IMG/VR virus record: IMGVR_UViG_3300042558_004148
Coordinates: 207,416 to 271,415 of that record
Direction: 5' to 3' (one strand)
Source: a virus
Length of the DNA: 64,000 nucleotides
In this document: positions 2,944 to 54,091 of the stretch, piece by piece
Position numbering within the stretch: position 1 is the stretch's first letter
Layout of the letters: every line of letters starts with the position of its first letter
Translations under genes and position numbers: made by a program
The notes under the pieces: model-generated
What the model was told of the DNA's origin: nothing
Database searches by the model: none
What the model saw: only the letters and a program-made list of their open reading frames with translations

Positions 2944-4083
2944 ATGGAAAGAAAATTAGCATCAGTACAGAAAGTTAGAGAAATACTCCCAATAGAGGGA
3001 GCGGATGCAATAGAAATTGCAGTTATTAATTCATGGAAGGTTATCACAAAAAAAGGTGAATATCAGCCGGGAGATCTTTGCATTTATTGCGAGATTGATT
3101 CATTTCTCCCAATTAAAGAAGAATTTGAATTTCTCAGAAAGAGCTCGTTTAAAAAGATGGATGGTCAAGAAGGATTCCGCCTTAAAACAATTAGATTGAG
3201 AGGTCAAGTTAGTCAGGGTCTTATATTGCCATTATCAGTTTTAAATGGCGAGGAGGAAATGACTGTTGGTATCAGCCAGCAACCATGGGGAGATCAATTA
3301 CAACTTGGACCTTATGACGATGCACTTGTTATAGAAGAGGGAGCTGATGTTACTGAGATTTTAGGGATAGTCAAGTACGATCCACCAATCCCAGCTCAGC
3401 TTGCAGGTAAGGTTAAAGGTTACTTCCCATCATTCATTCGTAAGACCGACGAGGAAAGGGTTCAAAATCTAACTAATGAATATTTTGGGTGGAAAATACA
3501 ATCAGCTACTCAATTCTACGTTACTGAGAAATTGGACGGAAGCTCTGCAACATTCTATTTCAAGGATGGCGTATTTGGTGTGTGTTCTAGAAATCTAGAA
3601 TTGGCTGAGCCTGAAGCATTCGTTGAAGGTGAAATGGTAATGTGTCAGGATGGTGTTGAACGACCTAAGCAGGAAAATTCCTTCTGGAAAGTTGCTCAGC
3701 ATCTACAACTTGGAGATTGGATGGCAAAACAAGATGCCAACTATGCTATCCAAGGGGAGTTGATTGGCGAAGGAATTCAGGGAAATCCATATAAAATAAA
3801 AGGTCACACCGTTAGATTCTTTAATGCATTCAATATCGATACACAGGAATATCTAGGACTGGATGAATTTGAGGGCTTAATAAAATCAATGGGATTGGAA
3901 ACTGTGCCTATCTTAGATCGTAATTTTCTTCTTCCTAATACAGTTGATGATCTATTGGAATATGCTGACGCAAAATCAGTTTTAAATCCGGATTTCGATA
4001 GAGAGGGAGTCGTTATCAGAAGTCTTGATAGAAAGATTAGCTTCAAAGCTATCTCCAATAAATTCCTATTAAAAGAGAAATAA
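2944..4083 (+). CDS. ATP-dependent RNA ligase (nucleotidyltransferase superfamily)
   Basis: Ligase motif I KxDG (TEKLDGSS), a motif IV-like segment (IQGELIGEG) and a motif V-like segment (YKIKGHTVRF). The N-terminal VQKV..IEGAD...GDLCIYCEIDS stretch is typical of phage Rnl-type ligases. Confidence 0.65.
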   Translation: MERKLASVQKVREILPIEGADAIEIAVINSWKVITKKGEYQPGDLCIYCEIDSFLPIKEEFEFLRKSSFKKMDGQEGFRLKTIRLRGQVSQGLILPLSVLNGEEEMTVGISQQPWGDQLQLGPYDDALVIEEGADVTEILGIVKYDPPIPAQLAGKVKGYFPSFIRKTDEERVQNLTNEYFGWKIQSATQFYVTEKLDGSSATFYFKDGVFGVCSRNLELAEPEAFVEGEMVMCQDGVERPKQENSFWKVAQHLQLGDWMAKQDANYAIQGELIGEGIQGNPYKIKGHTVRFFNAFNIDTQEYLGLDEFEGLIKSMGLETVPILDRNFLLPNTVDDLLEYADAKSVLNPDFDREGVVIRSLDRKISFKAISNKFLLKEK

Positions 4084-8064: not shown

Positions 8065-8508
8065 ATGGCAAAAAAACACGTAAATATTGTAAACCGAAAA
8101 GCTAAATTCGAATATGAATTTATAAGAACCTTAGTTGCAGGTATTCAATTGATGGGATCCGAGGTTAAGTCTATAAGGGACTCAAGAGTTGATTTTTCGG
8201 ATTCGTACTGTTATTTTAATAATGGAGAGTTATACATCAAGAATCTAAGCATCACGCAAATGGATTCGCATTATTCACACGAAGCAAAAAGAGATCGAAA
8301 ACTTCTACTGAAGAAAAGAGAACTAACCAAATTTGAAAAAGATCTGGTTAAGAACATGTCAATAGTTCCGTACAGAATCTTCGAAACTGATAAGGCTATG
8401 CTTAAAATGGAAATAGCTCTAGGAAGGGGTAAAAAACTTTACGATAAGAGGGAGACTATAAAAAATAGGGACATAGAAAGAGACACTCAGAAACAACTTA
8501 AAGGATAA
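8065..8508 (+). CDS. smpB: SsrA-binding protein SmpB
   Basis: NRKAKFEYEF..GIQLMGSEVKSIRDSRVDFSDSYCYF, RDRKLLLKKREL and GRGKKLYDKRETIK align position-by-position with bacterial SmpB. Confidence 0.85.
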   Translation: MAKKHVNIVNRKAKFEYEFIRTLVAGIQLMGSEVKSIRDSRVDFSDSYCYFNNGELYIKNLSITQMDSHYSHEAKRDRKLLLKKRELTKFEKDLVKNMSIVPYRIFETDKAMLKMEIALGRGKKLYDKRETIKNRDIERDTQKQLKG

Positions 8509-10896: not shown

Positions 10897-11628
10897 ATGT
10901 TTAAATTTTACGAGGTTGGTGGAAAGGTTAGAGACGAGATTTTAGGATTACAGTCTAAAGACGTTGATTATGTTGCAGTTCCGAATGATGCTTTATTAAG
11001 CAAATATAAGGAGGCATATGAAATGTTTCTGTCTCTCGAGAATTATCTTACAACAAATGGATTTGAAATATTCCTATCTACTCCTGATTGCTATACAATT
11101 AGAGCGAAGTTTCCGAAAGACCATGTATATTCAGGCGTAGCGGACTTCGTAATGGCACGAAAAGAAGTTGGTTATGTTACAGGCACAAGAACTCCAATAG
11201 TTAAGCCAGGCACTCTATATGACGATCTAGAGCGAAGAGATTTTACCCTCAATGCTCTTGCTAAGGATGACGATGGAACCATCATAGACTTTTTTAATGG
11301 GATAGACGATCTTAAAGCTGGTGTATTGAAAACACCTCTTGATTGCAAGGTGACATTTGACGACGATCCGCTAAGAATTCTGAGAGCTATTAGATTTTCT
11401 ATAACCAAGGGATTTACCATGACACCACATATGGCCATCGTTATTGATTCCTACAATTATGACGAAAAAATGTCAGTGGTTTCAACCGAGAGAATCAGGG
11501 AGGAATTATATAAATGTTTCAAAGAGAATACATTAGGAACGCTAAGAATTCTTAATGAATTTCCAACTCTAAGAAATTACATTTTTGAAAAAACTGATCT
11601 TTGGTTAAAGCCAACTAACGAAAAATAG
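10897..11628 (+). CDS. tRNA nucleotidyltransferase (CCA-adding enzyme, head domain only)
   Basis: MFKFYEVGGKVRDEILGLQSKDVDYVAV matches the GGxVRD...DxD head motif and RRDFTLNALA matches RRDFTINA. The track start at 10870 is a TTG lying inside the -7 box, so the ATG at 10897 is preferred. Confidence 0.8.
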   Translation: MFKFYEVGGKVRDEILGLQSKDVDYVAVPNDALLSKYKEAYEMFLSLENYLTTNGFEIFLSTPDCYTIRAKFPKDHVYSGVADFVMARKEVGYVTGTRTPIVKPGTLYDDLERRDFTLNALAKDDDGTIIDFFNGIDDLKAGVLKTPLDCKVTFDDDPLRILRAIRFSITKGFTMTPHMAIVIDSYNYDEKMSVVSTERIREELYKCFKENTLGTLRILNEFPTLRNYIFEKTDLWLKPTNEK

Positions 11629-48971: not shown

Positions 48972-49177
48972 GAAGTTTTAATAATCTCTTTGATGTAATC
49001 GATATGAAAGCATCTATTAAACAACCAGATACTTACCACCGTATAGAAGAGGAAATAGCATCATTACACAGGCTCCTAGATAAATTAGCACCTAATACAA
49101 TGGGTGAGGGTGATCTTATAGGTAATAGGATAGAGAAATTATTATCATCAGATGCAGATTGGGATAAAATAAAATAG
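48968..49177 (+). CDS. hypothetical protein
   Basis: ORF track. Confidence 0.35.
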   Translation: MRSFNNLFDVIDMKASIKQPDTYHRIEEEIASLHRLLDKLAPNTMGEGDLIGNRIEKLLSSDADWDKIK

Positions 49178-49183
49178 CAAATT

Positions 49184-49217
49184 ATTTTTTTATCTCGTAT
49201 AAATTGATTAAATTTGT
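49184..49217 (+). promoter_or_regulatory. phage promoter driving tRNA-like gene A: TTTTTTTATCTCGTA - N9 - TAAATTTG
   Basis: The -7 box lies about 15 nt upstream of the predicted 5' end of the tRNA-like RNA at 49232. Confidence 0.5.
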
Positions 49218-49231
49218 ATAACAATTAAAAA

Positions 49232-49311
49232 GGTCCTGGAGCTTAATCTGACGTGGAAGTCAGGTCTGCCTCTAAAACAGATAGCATCGGGTTCGAATCC
49301 TGCTAGGATCA
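49232..49311 (+). tRNA. tRNA-like gene A (80 nt, non-canonical D region), anticodon loop C-U-CUA-A-A (amber-suppressor-like CUA)
   Basis: Acceptor GGTCCTG pairs with TAGGATC (two G.U pairs). T arm CGGG-TTCGAAT-CCTG. Anticodon stem TCTG/CAGA closes the loop CTCTAAA. Discriminator A. No encoded CCA. Confidence 0.45.
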
Positions 49312-49317
49312 CAAAAG

Positions 49318-49330
49318 AGTTCTTTGAAAT
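49318..49330 (+). repeat. 13-bp direct repeat AGTTCTTTGAAAT (copy 1)
   Basis: Identical 13-mer recurs at 50148..50160, bracketing about 820 bp. Confidence 0.5.
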
Positions 49331-49597
49331 AGTAAGATAGCAGATAGACCTATATCAGCAGAATCCCACAGGGAGTCAGAAATGACGAGCAAGACGGAGC
49401 TCCTATCAGATTAACGCGTTGAGGAGGCACTCAAAGTTTTCCGAGAGGTTAACAGGTGTATAAACGATGGTTTGGGTAGAACGGATGTTAAAGGCGAGAT
49501 ATAGGTAGAAAGGATGGGGTAACCCACGAATGTGTAAATCTTAAGGTCTTACTATTTTAATTATTCTTGATTGATAATTAACACTTAAAAAATATTT

Positions 49598-50143
49598 ATG
49601 GCAACATTATTTGCATTTGGAACAATTTGGTTTTGGTTCCTAATTACGGCGGTTCTAGTAACCATTATTTCCATCACTGAATTGGAGGAGTCGTCATCCT
49701 GGCATTGGCCAATATTACTAGGAATCCCAACACTGCTATACTTTACTGGATGTGCAGATGAGATCAATTCCATTATAAACTATGCTAAGGATAATCCATT
49801 AGCAATAATTCTGATCTTAGGTGGATATTTATTAGTAGGTACCCTCTGGTCTTTCATTAAATGGTTTCTATATCTTACAAATTTAACGGAATATTACAGA
49901 AAATATCCATATAATTTCAGTTCAGCTAAGGATAAATTTAATGCTAGGGAAAATAAGGAGAGAATCATTAATTGGATGATGTATTGGCCGTTGTCAGGAA
50001 TTTGGACATTGATCGACGATCCAGTTAAGAAAGCATTCCAAAAGATATTCTCCGGATTAGAAAACAGATTCCAAAAGATATCAGATAATTTAACAGAGGA
50101 ATTTACCGAAAAGGAATCTGAAGAATTTGACAAGAGAGGTTAA
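49598..50143 (+). CDS. integral membrane protein
   Basis: Several TM helices. Confidence 0.45.
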   Translation: MATLFAFGTIWFWFLITAVLVTIISITELEESSSWHWPILLGIPTLLYFTGCADEINSIINYAKDNPLAIILILGGYLLVGTLWSFIKWFLYLTNLTEYYRKYPYNFSSAKDKFNARENKERIINWMMYWPLSGIWTLIDDPVKKAFQKIFSGLENRFQKISDNLTEEFTEKESEEFDKRG

Positions 50144-50147
50144 AAAT

Positions 50148-50160
50148 AGTTCTTTGAAAT
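50148..50160 (+). repeat. 13-bp direct repeat AGTTCTTTGAAAT (copy 2)
   Basis: See copy 1. Confidence 0.5.
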
Positions 50161-50164
50161 TATA

Positions 50165-50840
50165 AAAAATATCATAAAAACGGCCTGGTTGGTAGACAGG
50201 GAGGAGTATTTAATGTAATCTGCTCAATGTGAGGAAATAACTGTCTGTAGGCATACAACAGTCCAAACGATAAACCATTATGATACAATTAGCAATGGAG
50301 GTAAACGCGAGATGAAGCGTTGGAGAATAGGGGCTCATGGATTTGAGATTCCCGCCTGGCTACCCATCAGGACTTTATAAGATAATTCCATCCACCTATA
50401 AGAAACCATTGCTTTTTAAAATATATTTAGTTAATAAATATTTTGGGGAAAGGATTAATTAACTAAACAGGTTAAACATTGAATACCTTTGTAAATTATA
50501 GTTGGGCATTTCACAGATGAGTGTTTAGATGAGTTTGAATCTCAGATTGTCCTCAAAGTTAAGAAGTTGAAAGACTCTTTTGCTATAGGTTTACATAAAG
50601 ATACTATCAGTAATGGTAGATGTGTTGTTCCCTTGAGAAAGGAATACGATTTGGCAAGCTTGGTGCAGGAGTTTTGATACTGACAAGACAACACAAATGA
50701 GTTCTCAGCAAGTGCTTCGAAAAGCTATGCAGTTTTAAAACTCCTATGGAGCCTTACAAACTAGAAGTACGTGACCCTACTCTTATACAAGCCCCGTAAC
50801 TGATAACTCGGTAGGCTATAAGAAAGAGGGTGCTAAATAA
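50165..50840. other. about 680-bp ORF-free, GC-richer block; candidate structured ncRNA(s)
   Basis: No ORF of 60 aa or more on either strand. Composition differs from the flanking AT-rich genes. It sits inside the tRNA-like cluster. Confidence 0.3.
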
Positions 50841-50845
50841 AAGTT

Positions 50846-51052
50846 ATGGAAAGAGAAATAAGTAAAGAAACTGATGAGTTTATTGATAAATTAGACCATC
50901 TATGTTGGGAACATCGCTTTGAAATTTGGCCAACTGATACCATTAATAAAAGAAATGAAGATGGATCATATCCAACTTTTACTATTCATAATATGAGCAA
51001 TGGGGAAACAGTAAGATTAATATATGTCGATGGTGACGGAAGAGGTAAATAA
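50846..51052 (+). CDS. hypothetical protein
   Basis: ORF track. Confidence 0.4.
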   Translation: MEREISKETDEFIDKLDHLCWEHRFEIWPTDTINKRNEDGSYPTFTIHNMSNGETVRLIYVDGDGRGK

Positions 51053-51058
51053 TTAAAT

Positions 51059-51228
51059 AGTCAGGTGGCGGAATTGGTAGACGCTATTTTGAAAGCAAAC
51101 AGTTGCAGGATTAGATCGGCACCAGCTAAGTAGTATCAAATGCCATTAAGGTACTGGGTCGTAATAACTGATATTAACCGCTCGCGGTTGGCATGTAATC
51201 CATGCAGGTTCGAGTCCTGCCCTGACTA
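51059..51228 (+). tRNA. tRNA-like gene B (about 170 nt): type-II-like 5' half and T arm/acceptor separated by an insertion of about 100 nt
   Basis: 5' AGTCAGG-TG-GCGGAATTGGTAGACGC (canonical acceptor + D arm). 3' GCAGG-TTCGAGT-CCTGC + CCTGACT + A. The acceptor strands are complementary. About 100 nt too long for a tRNA. Confidence 0.45.
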
Positions 51229-51268
51229 CGAATTCTTATCGACGTTGATAAGAAGAAAAACAAATATA

Positions 51269-51727
51269 ATGAAAAGAACAAAATTAATTTTAATTGCGAT
51301 GTTAAGTGTTTTGTCACTAAGTACATTCGCTCAATCCATTACATCGGTAGTTACCCCGGCAACTAGTGATACTTTATGCAATGGATCAACCACTTTTACC
51401 GGAGCTAATCCATCAGCAGTGTTTATTTGGATGCAACAAGGGACAACACCAATTGCAACGTTTACATCGGATTCAACAACCTATAATCTATGTCCAGGAA
51501 TATATGATGTTCAAATTTGGAACAATATGACGGATACGATGTACTATGATACAGTCATTACCATCCTATCACCATCAACACATTTAGGAATCGATGAATT
51601 GACAAATGAAGCCAAAATTGTAGGAGTATTTGATTTAGTAGGTAAAGAATCTGAATTGGTAACAAATAAACCTCTGGTTTTGGTTTATAGTAACGGAACA
51701 AGAAAACGTAGATATATTACAGAATAA
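51269..51727 (+). CDS. secreted protein
   Basis: The internal ATG at 51269 gives a signal peptide MKRTKLILIAMLSVLSLSTFAQ. The track start 51140 lies inside tRNA-like gene B. Confidence 0.5.
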   Translation: MKRTKLILIAMLSVLSLSTFAQSITSVVTPATSDTLCNGSTTFTGANPSAVFIWMQQGTTPIATFTSDSTTYNLCPGIYDVQIWNNMTDTMYYDTVITILSPSTHLGIDELTNEAKIVGVFDLVGKESELVTNKPLVLVYSNGTRKRRYITE

Positions 51728-51734
51728 TAAAAAA

Positions 51735-51864
51735 AGTCAGGTGGCGGAATTGGTAGACGCTAGACAGGTAACCAACTACAACTGTAATAAACCCGCTGAT
51801 CACGGTTAATAAGAACAGCTCTGTCGCAGAGGTTGGTATACAGGTTCGAATCCTGTCCTGGCTA
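51735..51864 (+). tRNA. tRNA-like gene C (about 130 nt): first 28 nt identical to gene B; insertion of about 57 nt
   Basis: 5' AGTCAGGTGGCGGAATTGGTAGACGCTA is identical to B. 3' ACAGG-TTCGAAT-CCTGT + CCTGGCT + A. The acceptor pairs with one G.U pair. Confidence 0.45.
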
Positions 51865-52009
51865 CTTAGCAAGGCATAAACGATAAGGAAAATCTGTCAC
51901 AAGTTTATGTTAAGTTGCAGACAGACCGAAATGCTTACGGTTAACAGGGCTTACCCATAAAGTCCAGAGAGCATAATCTAACGGGTGACTGATGGAAAGA
52001 CATCAAAAT

Positions 52010-52096
52010 AGTCAGGTGGTGTAATAGGCAACACCCTTCATTATCAGGCCCCGTAAGGCTGGAAGGACGACGCAGGTTCGAATCCTGTCCTGACCA
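52010..52096 (+). tRNA. tRNA-like gene D (87 nt) with an extended (about 32-nt) anticodon-arm-like hairpin
   Basis: Acceptor AGTCAGG/CCTGACC (A1.C72). D arm GTGT-AATAGGCA-ACAC. Long hairpin CCTTC...CAG(G)CC-CCGTAA-GGCTG...GAAGG. T arm GCAGG-TTCGAAT-CCTGT. Confidence 0.45.
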
Positions 52097-52217
52097 CTAA
52101 AACAACTAGCGGAGTAGGCACAAATCTTCGTTAACAGTGGTATTTAAGTAGGTTTGGGGATGCTGTGTAGTCCATTGAAAACTAAACCGAAGATTGCTTA
52201 TGTAGTTGTTTTTATAC

Positions 52218-52283
52218 AGTCAGATGAAAGTAGGCTAAGACGAATTAAGTTTCGCGTTGCAGGTTCGATTCCTGCTCTGACTA
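52218..52283 (+). tRNA. tRNA-like gene E (66 nt, degenerate; possibly a pseudo-tRNA)
   Basis: Acceptor AGTCAGA/TCTGACT and T arm GCAGG-TTCGATT-CCTGC. The internal region is too short for both a D arm and an anticodon arm. Confidence 0.35.
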
Positions 52284-52309
52284 CTAATATTAAATTAAAA
52301 AAATTCCAT

Positions 52310-52636
52310 GTGAATGTAGACTTATTTAGACATTGGCTTCCGGACTTAAGACAAACTCAAAACAAGAGTGCTTATGTAGCAAAGCAATGCCCGATTTGTC
52401 CAAGAACCCCGAATAGCAAATCGTTTCGTATAAACACGAAACTAAAAGTTTTTAAGTGCTATCAATGCGGAAGAGGTGGAAAGAACTTTAATAAGATGGT
52501 CCATTATTTAAAGAAACGTGATACTAGTGTACATAGTAATAAATATCTGAAGAAAATAGGTCGTCGTCCAGTGTGTGTTCCTATTGAGGTTCATTACGGT
52601 TGTGAAACTTTCTATGAAAGTCAGCTCCCATTTTGA
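52310..52636 (+). CDS. CHC2 (primase-type) zinc-finger protein, start uncertain (GTG)
   Basis: CPICPRTPNSKSF....KVFKCYQCGRGGKNFNKMVHYL matches the DnaG CHC2 finger. The frame is open back through tRNA-like gene E with no ATG, so GTG 52310 is the first plausible start. Confidence 0.4.
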   Translation: MNVDLFRHWLPDLRQTQNKSAYVAKQCPICPRTPNSKSFRINTKLKVFKCYQCGRGGKNFNKMVHYLKKRDTSVHSNKYLKKIGRRPVCVPIEVHYGCETFYESQLPF

Positions 52637-52676: not shown

Positions 52677-52742
52677 ATTAAAAATAAATTTAATAAAAAA
52701 AGAAACTTTTTTAAAAACAAATATATAATAGGTATGAATTAG

Positions 52743-53084
52743 ATTAAATTACAAACTCCGAAACTTGTCATCATAACCAGACAAGACATCAACCCAGGTT
52801 ATCAAGTTGTTCAATCAACACATTCAATAGCTGACTTTGCTTATGAACATCCTGAAAAGTTCAAAGAATGGAAAGAGACATCAAATTCTATAATTTGTCT
52901 CTCCGCAAGATCAGAAGAGCACCTAATTAAACTTTACGAGAAATACAGAACCGTCACAGAGGCATCATTGTTTTTTGAGCCTGATGTTGACGCATATACT
53001 TCTGCGTGTTTTTTTGGAACTCCACAAGTCAGAAAAGCATTCTCGCATCTACCGCTATCATTAAAAACACAACCAACATCATGA
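52743..53084 (+). CDS. PTH2-like peptidyl-tRNA hydrolase; no canonical start codon in the open frame
   Basis: KLVIITRQDINPGYQVVQSTHSIADFAY and WKETSNSIICLSARSEEHLIKLYEKY align with PTH2 ([29 protein letters not shown] / [27 protein letters not shown]). The frame opens at ATT directly after ATG-AAT-TAG. Stop overlaps the next gene (ATGA). Start coordinate approximate. Confidence 0.55.
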   Translation: MKLQTPKLVIITRQDINPGYQVVQSTHSIADFAYEHPEKFKEWKETSNSIICLSARSEEHLIKLYEKYRTVTEASLFFEPDVDAYTSACFFGTPQVRKAFSHLPLSLKTQPTS

Positions 53085-53494
53085 AAGGAATTCTAAAAGT
53101 TAGAAACATAGATTCAATTAAGAGATTGAGTCTTAAGAGGGCTATCGGCAAGCAGAAAGGTCTGAGATCGAGAATGTCAAAAATTCGAACATCAATATTA
53201 TTTCTAGAGGAACATAATATGCTCACCGAGGATCAGCTATGGGATATAATGGTGATTTATTTAAAATATCATGCTGAATATTCCAAATTACAATATCTGA
53301 TCTATGTTAGGAAAAGAAGCTCCTGGCTCAATTATACCACGCTATCCCAGGAAACAATGGATGAATATATCAACAAAATCTCAGTTAATTCACACAATAT
53401 TACTAGCAATCTACCATACGAGATCTATTATAAATATAGGGATGCTATGACAAGGAGAGAACTAGAATTAAAACAAATAATAAATAATAAATAA
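53081..53494 (+). CDS. hypothetical protein
   Basis: The internal ATG at 53081 (MKGILKV) overlaps the PTH2-like stop; preferred over the track GTG at 53006. Confidence 0.4.
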   Translation: MKGILKVRNIDSIKRLSLKRAIGKQKGLRSRMSKIRTSILFLEEHNMLTEDQLWDIMVIYLKYHAEYSKLQYLIYVRKRSSWLNYTTLSQETMDEYINKISVNSHNITSNLPYEIYYKYRDAMTRRELELKQIINNK

Positions 53495-53545
53495 TAAATA
53501 ATTATGTGCAACTAGATTAACAACAAAGAAGAGCTCGTTATTGCA

Positions 53546-54091
53546 ATGAGCCAATGCGAGCAGACTAAAGGACAGTCTGTATTAGATCACGGTAAATCTG
53601 TGGAATCCCATTTATTCGATTTACTTCATCATCTACGCCACGGATCCGATCTGAAATACGAATGGAAAATTCCAGAATTCGTATACGAAAACAAGGATCT
53701 ATTACTTAAGTCATTGCCAGATGACGAGACATTAAGTCTCTATACAATTTACCACGACTGTGGAAAAATTTTATGTATGGAAATAGATGCCGACGGACGT
53801 AAACACTTCCCTAATCACGCAGAAATATCTCATAAGACCTTTACCCGATTTTTTGAAAATAGTGTTGCAGCGGAGCTAATTCGATGTGATATGGACATTC
53901 ATTGTCTTAAGTCCGAAGGTGTAGAGGAATTTGCAAAAAATCCACACTGTTTAACCTTATTATTAGCTGGATTAGCAGAAATCCATTCAAACTCTCAGAT
54001 GTTTGGTGGGATGGATAGTACAAGTTTTAAAATCAAATGGAAAGCCATCACCCAACGAGGCAAACAAATATTAAAAATAAAAACAATTTAA
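53546..54091 (+). CDS. HD-domain phosphohydrolase-like protein
   Basis: VLDHGKSVESH ... LYTIYHDCGK ... FPNHAEISH gives the H..H ... HD.GK ... H..H layout. Confidence 0.45.
   Translation: MSQCEQTKGQSVLDHGKSVESHLFDLLHHLRHGSDLKYEWKIPEFVYENKDLLLKSLPDDETLSLYTIYHDCGKILCMEIDADGRKHFPNHAEISHKTFTRFFENSVAAELIRCDMDIHCLKSEGVEEFAKNPHCLTLLLAGLAEIHSNSQMFGGMDSTSFKIKWKAITQRGKQILKIKTI

Follow-up and report, generated by a model that had tools for sequence, protein, structure and literature searches.

A non-canonical tRNA(CUA) gene and early amber codons in nearby PTH2-like and HD-domain genes of an apparent jumbo phage

The stretch of viral DNA analysed here (IMG/VR record IMGVR_UViG_3300042558_004148, positions 207,416 to 271,415; 64,000 nt, hereafter the window) appears to belong to a jumbo phage that uses the standard genetic code. 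Public assemblies contain the same genome on contigs of 0.2-1 Mb, and related contigs, denoted by L numbers, include some from lake metagenomes. Under the standard code, ORFs of 100 codons or more from the two strands add up to about 95% of the length of the window. Among about 117 crude ORF calls the stops were TAA (92, 79%), TAG (15-16) and TGA (9), in agreement with the original prediction that TAG is an ordinary stop for many genes of this DNA. The tRNA-like gene that is the main subject of this report, gene A, was delimited by means of its sequence, its homologues, an alignment and a covariance model; its parts are as follows.

49209..49216, + strand: candidate Bacteroidota-type -7 promoter box, TAAATTTG, lying 16 nt ahead of gene A
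49232..49311, + strand: gene A, putative non-canonical tRNA(CUA), 80 nt, GGTCCTGGAGCTTAATCTGACGTGGAAGTCAGGTCTGCCTCTAAAACAGATAGCATCGGGTTCGAATCCTGCTAGGATCA
49232-39, + strand: acceptor, 5' strand
49240, + strand: A9
49241-43, + strand: helix X, 5' strand, GCT
49244-47, + strand: TAAT
49248-63, + strand: hairpin H1, loop GTGGAA
49264, + strand: single G between H1 and the anticodon stem
49265-68 with 49278-81, + strand: anticodon stem TCTG/CAGA, 4 bp
49269-77, + strand: 9-nt anticodon loop
49272..49274, + strand: anticodon CTA, predicted to read UAG (CUA and A37 kept in homologues)
49283-85, + strand: helix X, 3' strand, AGC
49288-91 with 49299-302, + strand: T stem
49292-98, + strand: T loop TTCGAAT
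49303-10, + strand: acceptor, 3' strand
49311, + strand: discriminator A

The boundaries 49232-49311 had been proposed in the original prediction, as had a CUA loop on a 4-bp TCTG/CAGA stem with C.A at the closing position; the sequence is exactly so, and the register covaries among homologues. C49269 and A49277 at the loop-closing position are unpaired, and the inner 7-nt loop CTCTAAA (49270-76) supplies U33, the CUA anticodon, A37 and A38. CCA is not encoded, the trailer being CAAAAG. Under default settings ARAGORN found no tRNA anywhere in the 64-kb window. At an 80% threshold it called a tRNA(cta), labelled tRNA-Pyl, at 49239-49312, so that the ARAGORN check suggested beforehand failed at default, confirmed the anticodon at the lower threshold and misplaced the register. 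The Rfam tRNA model (RF00005) gave 25.4 bits (gathering score 29), likewise in a register from 49239, in which the cloverleaf contains three non-standard pairs. This cloverleaf register was rejected, since it needs the three mismatches and fails in homologues such as that of L013. Because the comparative data fit the register from 49232, that of Rfam and ARAGORN is taken to be wrong, and G49232 and A49311 are assigned, on the evidence of the homologues, as base 1 and discriminator. The model structure has a computed free energy of -22.1 kcal/mol, 3 kcal/mol above the minimum of -25.1 kcal/mol, a gap taken as unremarkable for a tRNA.

Three other identities of the RNA were considered and rejected. 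An initiator-type amber tRNA does not agree with the paired G1-C72 or with an anticodon stem that is without three consecutive G-C pairs. A tmRNA or permuted tmRNA, composed of gene A and downstream RNA, is unsupported by ARAGORN or Rfam, and G3-U70 is absent. Decoding of a quadruplet (UAGA) by the enlarged loop would lead into a +1 frame that stops after about 10 codons, and the protein of the PTH2-like gene described below lies in the triplet frame. Other Rfam families gave no match to gene A or its flank at E<10, so no theta or HDV-like ribozyme was found behind it. A motif, AGTTCTTTGAAA, occurs just past gene A (49317-49329) and again ahead of a large non-coding stretch (50147-50159); it was also seen behind the gene A copy of L023, at about 5060.

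Regarding homologues, the near-identical contig L011 carries an identical copy of gene A, and L013, a 314-kb JGI contig reached via its PTH2-like protein, carries one that has diverged and lies 2 kb ahead of its PTH2-like gene. A pattern derived from the window and L013 copies retrieved further members from viral and metagenome contigs, and 37 viral loci encoding PTH2-like proteins were fetched and scanned, which yielded many more. In total, the family comprises at least 22 distinct homologues. Its covariance model, R1, scores the members at 54-95 bits (93.3 bits for the window copy), except for one divergent copy at 32 bits, and scores ordinary tRNAs, including canonical tRNA(CUA), at no more than 49 bits; it thus sets the gene A family cleanly apart from ordinary tRNAs, and the feature goes well beyond what chance would produce. 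No family member was reported by ARAGORN under default settings in the related loci, and the L013 copy had no Rfam match at E<=0.5. The GTDB species-representative bacterial and archaeal genomes contained no match to an IUPAC pattern of the subfamily with the GGTCYT acceptor, the phage nucleotide collection contained no relative of 49150-52350, and two exact-pattern scans of viral contigs gave no matches. Contigs L002-L010, which are relatives found via a 181-aa ORF (49598-50143), have no gene A copy nearby; they carry a normal tRNA array and a tmRNA.

Nineteen distinct members were aligned with MAFFT (alignment A4), and the fold consists of an 8-bp acceptor, a 3-bp helix X, the 5-bp H1, the anticodon stem and a 4-bp T stem. 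Standard pairs fill 93.3% of the pair cells, compared with 32-44% after displacement of the 3' partners by 1-3 columns; both sides have changed in 22 of the 25 pairs, and none of 500 shuffles reached the observed values. The eighth acceptor pair is GC in nine sequences, AU in six, CG in two and GU in two, and is never unpaired. Both sides of the four anticodon-stem pairs have changed in 3-13 sequences each, whereas position 31-39 is unpaired in 17 of the 19, and the stem is therefore 4 bp long with a loop of effectively 9 nt. RNAalifold, with no structure supplied, recovered the 8-bp acceptor, H1, the 4-bp anticodon stem and the 4-bp T stem. In the register that puts 2 nt between helix X and the T stem, pairing of helix X across the 22 members amounts to 80%, as compared with 30-58% in other registers, and six different Watson-Crick triplet combinations occur; the helix is short and the least certain element of the fold.

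The bases invariant in A4 include G1, A9, the T-A-A after helix X, TCTAA of the anticodon loop (U33-C-U-A-A37) and TTC-A of the T loop; G25 is nearly invariant. Three members found later keep CUA and A37, position 33 being A in L041 and C in L050. Eighteen of 22 members have A as the discriminator, no member encodes CCA, and the trailer is mostly CAAA. The variable region has 5-7 nt, the H1 loop 5-8 nt, with 8 extra nucleotides ahead of H1. A scan that left the anticodon free met this architecture with CUA only. The CUA anticodon is thus invariant in the 19-member alignment while the stems covary, which lends strong comparative support to the earlier proposal of an amber-reading tRNA. A TAnnTTTG box, the Bacteroidota-type -7 consensus, lies 18-28 nt upstream of 12 of the 22 members, including the window copy, and may act as a promoter.

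Measured against a canonical tRNA, gene A has an 8-bp acceptor and a 4-bp T stem in place of 7 bp and 5 bp, and is without U8. The canonical D stem (10-13 with 22-25) is absent, positions 10-12 pairing with variable-region bases. A UUCRANY-type T loop, a GG for the elbow, a 7-nt anticodon loop of the form YU-NNN-RN and an unpaired discriminator are kept in A4. In the fold shown by covariation, the normal 12-bp acceptor branch is preserved as 8 bp of acceptor plus 4 bp of T stem, the old 5' strand of the D stem forms helix X with the variable region, the new hairpin H1 bears the GG that normally contacts the T loop, and a 4-bp stem presents the CUA; with its conserved CUA, the family consists of putative amber suppressors. 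In contigs L015 and L021 a canonical 7/5 tRNA(CUA) shares the acceptor sequence of gene A and its D-region GCTTAAT, and this likeness suggests that the odd body descends from a normal suppressor tRNA. At about 5930-5960 of L029 only the 3' end of a gene-A-type tRNA was seen, GGTCTGTAGGAGGCGCAAAAAC, ahead of a PTH2-like gene in which the TAG is retained; this remnant is possibly a decayed or rearranged copy.

Downstream of gene A lie two genes in which an in-frame TAG closely follows the start codon, separated by a further ORF.

52734..53084, + strand: PTH2-like gene; ATG 52734, AAT, TAG 52740-42, ATT; stop 53082-84 (Pfam, AlphaFold, homologues)
53081..53494, + strand: basic ORF of 137 aa, its ATG overlapping the PTH2 stop (ATGA)
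53504..54091, + strand: HD-domain gene; ATG 53504, TGC, AAC, TAG 53513-15, ATT 53516 (signature scan, homologues, fold model)

The PTH2-like gene opens as had been described, with ATG AAT TAG ATT AAA, and 113 in-frame sense codons follow the TAG before the stop. The Pfam PTH2 model gave a borderline 22.7 bits against a cut-off of 23; PF01981 is recorded for many homologues. Regarding structure, the AlphaFold model has a pLDDT of 74, and the top 11 Foldseek matches in the PDB are all Pth2 proteins (probability 0.96-1.0, TM 0.44-0.55). The product is thus assigned by its model to the PTH2 family and fold, with hydrolase activity predicted. Because of the ATGA overlap, the 137-aa ORF is probably coupled translationally to this gene.

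When DNA was read directly, ATG-(0-3 codons)-TAG was found in 36 of 41 PTH2-like loci (32 of the 37 viral loci, the window, L013, L059 and L060), in frame with the conserved protein. The codon after TAG is ATT (29 loci), GTA (4), ATA (2) or AAC (1). The five viral loci without TAG comprise one partial match and four distant homologues with 31-39% identity and ordinary starts, two of them beside a tRNA(UUA) and two (L057, L058) beside a tRNA(CUA). Since the TAG-less homologue of L052/L053 (6598-6673; 800-1151) directly adjoins a tRNA(UUA), which is ochre-reading, with a tmRNA nearby, PTH2-like genes seem to travel with suppressor tRNAs more generally. A glutamine at the position of the window TAG appears in database homologues, a point that had escaped the original prediction; code 15 had been used to translate these proteins, whose DNA reads TAG there. 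The contigs read ATG ACT TAG ATT and ATG TTG TAG ATT, from which translation table 11 does not give the stored proteins. The 'Q' is thus a code-15 convention and no evidence for glutamine at TAG. A conserved extra element was seen about 200 nt upstream of the PTH2-like gene in L033, L037 and L043; it begins with ATGATGTAGATTA, continues with a long hairpin and represents a second ATG-ATG-TAG-ATT motif, after which no long ORF follows.

The HD-domain gene, two ORFs downstream of the PTH2-like gene, was found by a scan for ATG followed by a few codons and TAG; 190 more sense codons come after its TAG. Neither this second gene (start 53504, TAG 53513) nor the non-cloverleaf body had been recognised when the tRNA was correctly called. 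In the window the signature occurs in the PTH2-like and HD genes only; it was also seen in a few other genes of other phages, such as one for a 317-codon zinc-finger protein right after the tRNA of L042. All 15 loci that hold an HD homologue read ATG-(1-7 codons)-TAG-AT[TA]. Standard gene callers start the gene at an internal Met (53546), and the homologues are stored in the database either as 181-184 aa (internal start) or as 193-197 aa (with 'Q'). The residues from TAG to the internal Met are conserved among homologues and form the first helix of the domain in the HD model (pLDDT 95.7), which argues that they are translated. The protein carries the H..HD..H..D motifs of the HD superfamily, and the best PDB fold matches of its model are the 'tRNA processing enzyme' entries 3wfo/3wfq/3wfr, which we take to be class-II CCA-adding enzymes, followed by HD phosphohydrolases.

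Taken together, the early stop is TAG, and never TAA or TGA, in all 51 loci (36 PTH2-like and 15 HD). It always follows an in-frame ATG, sits at about codons 2-8 rather than being scattered through genes, and is always followed by a purine, which is a favourable context for amber suppression; ATT comes next in 42 of the 51 (29/36 PTH2-like, 13/15 HD). A tRNA(CUA), of the gene A type or canonical, lies no more than 6 kb away, and often only a few hundred bases away, in 22 of the 32 TAG-bearing viral loci. With the TAG kept in 36 of 41 loci and this linkage, the suggestion that a suppressor possibly acts on the TAG of the PTH2-like gene has held up. The other ten loci have no tRNA(CUA) within 6 kb; theirs may lie elsewhere in genomes of 70-500 kb. 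When TAG was read as sense, the gain in ORF length did not exceed that of the TGA control, either in the window or in about 40 related loci of 12 kb; over this small part of large genomes, code-15 recoding was thus not found. In the window an in-frame TAG with a long ORF behind it was seen only in the two genes above, and the TAG stops gave no signal of adaptation to suppression (tandem stops, next base). A 95-aa ORF (2653-2940) ends in TAG-A, in frame with an RNA ligase ORF (2944-4083) one codon on; amber read-through would fuse the two, and the arrangement may be coincidence.

Several further elements related to RNA were located in the window, which also encodes SmpB, Thg1 and an RNA ligase.

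8065-8508: SmpB (Pfam, 152 bits)
10897..11628, + strand: nucleotidyltransferase, PolyA_pol / CCA-adding-type head domain (Pfam PF01743, 63.1 bits)
49312-49560 and 50144-50845: two gene-free stretches, conserved in comparison with L012 (89% protein identity)
51060-51229, 51735-51864, 52010-52096 and 52218-52283: four more tRNA-like genes

No tmRNA was detected in the window by ARAGORN or Rfam; a tmRNA matching RF00023 is present in the related jumbo-phage contigs L002, L004 and L006. All four tRNA-like genes have the acceptor AGUCAGG/CCUGACU together with a normal T arm, carry large insertions or rearrangements at the site of the anticodon arm, and have D arms of Leu type (two) and Gln type (one). 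The Rfam tRNA model gave 33.1, 37.8 and 27.5 bits for the last three, and none of the four was called by ARAGORN under default settings. Normal Leu and Gln tRNAs take the place of the odd ones in L008/L009, whereas those of L012 and L013 are similarly odd. The gene-free stretches show identity blocks and apparent compensatory changes relative to L012 and had no Rfam match at E<10; they are probably structured RNAs. The 3' half of 50144-50845 also occurs in L013 (8281-8590), with a tRNA-like gene directly after it. The nucleotidyltransferase has only 243 aa and consists of the head domain alone, and the HD protein resembles 'tRNA processing enzyme' entries; the two could be a split CCA-adding/repair enzyme.

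On present evidence gene A is probably a functional phage amber suppressor with a remodelled body that gates two genes for putative tRNA-3'-end enzymes. This reading is drawn from comparative evidence throughout: the cognate anticodon stays invariant while the body around it covaries, the early stop in two unrelated protein families is exclusively TAG, and the tRNA is physically linked to those genes; that GTA and AAC, found after some of the TAGs, are not start codons lends it further support. Gene A would be transcribed from its own Bacteroidota-type promoter and its ends would be trimmed. CCA would have to be added, because none is encoded, by a phage or host CCA-adding enzyme, possibly the nucleotidyltransferase of the window, and the tRNA would be charged by a host synthetase. 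Conservation and linkage suggest that it would then read the UAG located 1-4 codons past the ATG of at least two nearby genes (TAG 52740, 53513), the PTH2-like and HD proteins being made only if a working suppressor tRNA is present (an 'amber gate'). Read-through of ordinary TAG stops elsewhere would be only partial. Both gated proteins look like enzymes that act on tRNA 3' ends, and gene A itself needs CCA; the gate may thus tie their synthesis to tRNA maturation and charging, or may simply delay it.

Several observations weigh against this reading. There is no normal D stem or U8, 31/39 is unpaired, and a fit to synthetases, EF-Tu and the ribosome is assumed; 8/4 tRNAs do work in bacterial (E. 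coli) translation (PMC5389517). The PTH2 homologues of L057 and L058 stand beside a tRNA(CUA) and yet have no TAG. The preference for ATT after TAG (42/51) is unexplained by suppression alone, and the internal Met of the HD gene could be a suppressor-independent start.

These last two points lead to the main rival, in which ATG-x-TAG is a terminating leader mini-ORF with re-initiation at ATT or at the internal Met of the HD gene, gene A being unrelated or having other targets. ATT is a weak bacterial start and follows the TAG in 29/36 PTH2 and 13/15 HD loci, and the HD family keeps a Met 10-11 codons on that standard gene callers use; very short minigenes also interact with peptidyl-tRNA hydrolase biology, as with the bar minigenes of lambda. 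A leader leaves unexplained why the stop should be TAG in 51 of 51 loci where TAA dominates, and why tRNA(CUA) genes should be linked to it; the GTA (4 loci), AAC (1) or GTT found after TAG cannot initiate, and L027 has Val at the position of the internal Met. It is therefore considered unlikely. An ordinary suppressor serving a genome-wide reassignment of TAG in late genes, as in crAss-like phages with code 15, is judged rather improbable. The window covers only 64 kb of a genome of more than 200 kb and gene callers picked code 15 on short contigs; suppressor tRNAs with late-gene TAG recoding are well documented in phages (PMC10879173, PMC9523058). Against such recoding, TAG as sense gains no more than TGA in the window and about 40 loci of 12 kb, long ORFs behind an in-frame TAG are confined in the window to the two gated genes, 15-16 ORFs of the window end in TAG, and the early TAG is restricted to codons 2-8.

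That gene A does not decode at all, and is a tRNA-like regulatory or decoy RNA whose UCUA pairs with UAGR or which serves as bait for tRNA-targeting host nucleases, is regarded as very improbable. Such a role would accord with a non-canonical body missed by tRNA finders, with the purine after TAG, which could pair with U33, and with the presence in the window of four more aberrant tRNA-like genes and of RNA-repair genes. It would not account for selection that keeps the 12-bp acceptor branch, a canonical-type T loop (UUCGAAU in the window) and the GG, together with the YU-CUA-AA anticodon loop and the unpaired discriminator, and it would make the in-frame ATG ahead of the TAG needless. A decayed tRNA pseudogene with a fortuitous CUA is hardly credible: the sub-threshold scores in Rfam and ARAGORN and the three mismatches of the cloverleaf register would be expected of one, but at least 22 homologues have compensatory changes in every helix, with U33-CUA-A37 invariant in the 19 that were aligned.

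Regarding known systems, the dedicated suppressor proposed here has several partial counterparts. Phage suppressor tRNAs with adjacent ribozymes are known (PMC10879173). The suppressors of code-15 phages (PMC9523058, PMC10879173) are like gene A phage-encoded and bear CUA, and such a tRNA is proposed to serve as a switch, allowing translation of phage genes at which the host code would stop. In contrast to those phages, the phages of gene A are without general in-frame TAG use in the DNA seen, TAG occurring only 1-8 codons past the start of a few genes near the tRNA; gene A is also non-cloverleaf with no ribozyme behind it (no Rfam match at E<10), unlike the suppressors described there. In the 8/4 allo-tRNAs (Mukai et al. 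2017, PMC5389517) the 12-bp branch is composed of an 8-bp acceptor and a 4-bp T stem, as in gene A, and the 8/4 tRNAs include phage-encoded ones and candidate suppressors of nonsense codons. A long variable arm and a D arm like that of tRNA-Sec (long stem, tetraloop) characterise the allo-tRNAs; gene A has neither, its variable region being 5-7 nt long and pairing with 10-12, and it has an additional hairpin of 5 bp and an anticodon stem of 4 bp. A shortened, 4-bp anticodon stem is shared with the stop-reading tRNAs of PMC13092985; in those the top pair 27-43 is open and a near-cognate CCA reads UGA, whereas gene A has its open position at the bottom (31/39) and an anticodon fully cognate to UAG.

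The CUA anticodon is shared with tRNA-Pyl, a label that ARAGORN gives by naming convention only to any tRNA with CUA. In contrast to the 6-bp anticodon stem of tRNA-Pyl, gene A has a 4-bp stem, a canonical-type T loop, a GG in a hairpin loop and another body altogether, and no pyl genes stood out in those ORFs of the window that were scanned. The prfB gene (RF2) has an early in-frame UGA and a +1 frameshift by which it senses its own product. It resembles the gated genes in that an early stop in a translation-factor gene sets output by termination versus recoding; in the present case UAG would be read in frame by a dedicated tRNA, with putative tRNA-end enzymes as the products of the gated genes. 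The literature searched contained no account of this tRNA body or of amber-gated PTH2/HD genes, which does not prove that none exists.

A standard tRNA finder misses the whole of this family of phage suppressors, and phage genes with an early TAG are therefore mis-called, either by truncation to an internal start or by an assumed Gln. If the tRNA is active, it would widen the range of tRNA shapes accepted by bacterial translation and provide a natural, possibly orthogonal, scaffold for amber suppression. In a broader reading, for which the evidence is about evenly balanced, a family of jumbo phages with Bacteroidota-type hosts would possess a self-contained switch within an otherwise standard code, made up of a structurally new, CUA-only class of elongator tRNA and a small amber-gated regulon of tRNA-3'-end enzymes with UAG at one of codons 2-8, which would sense tRNA maturation and charging or time expression. 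The conserved early TAG in two genes for putative tRNA-end enzymes points to suppression as a gene-specific gate and not as a genome-wide change of the code.
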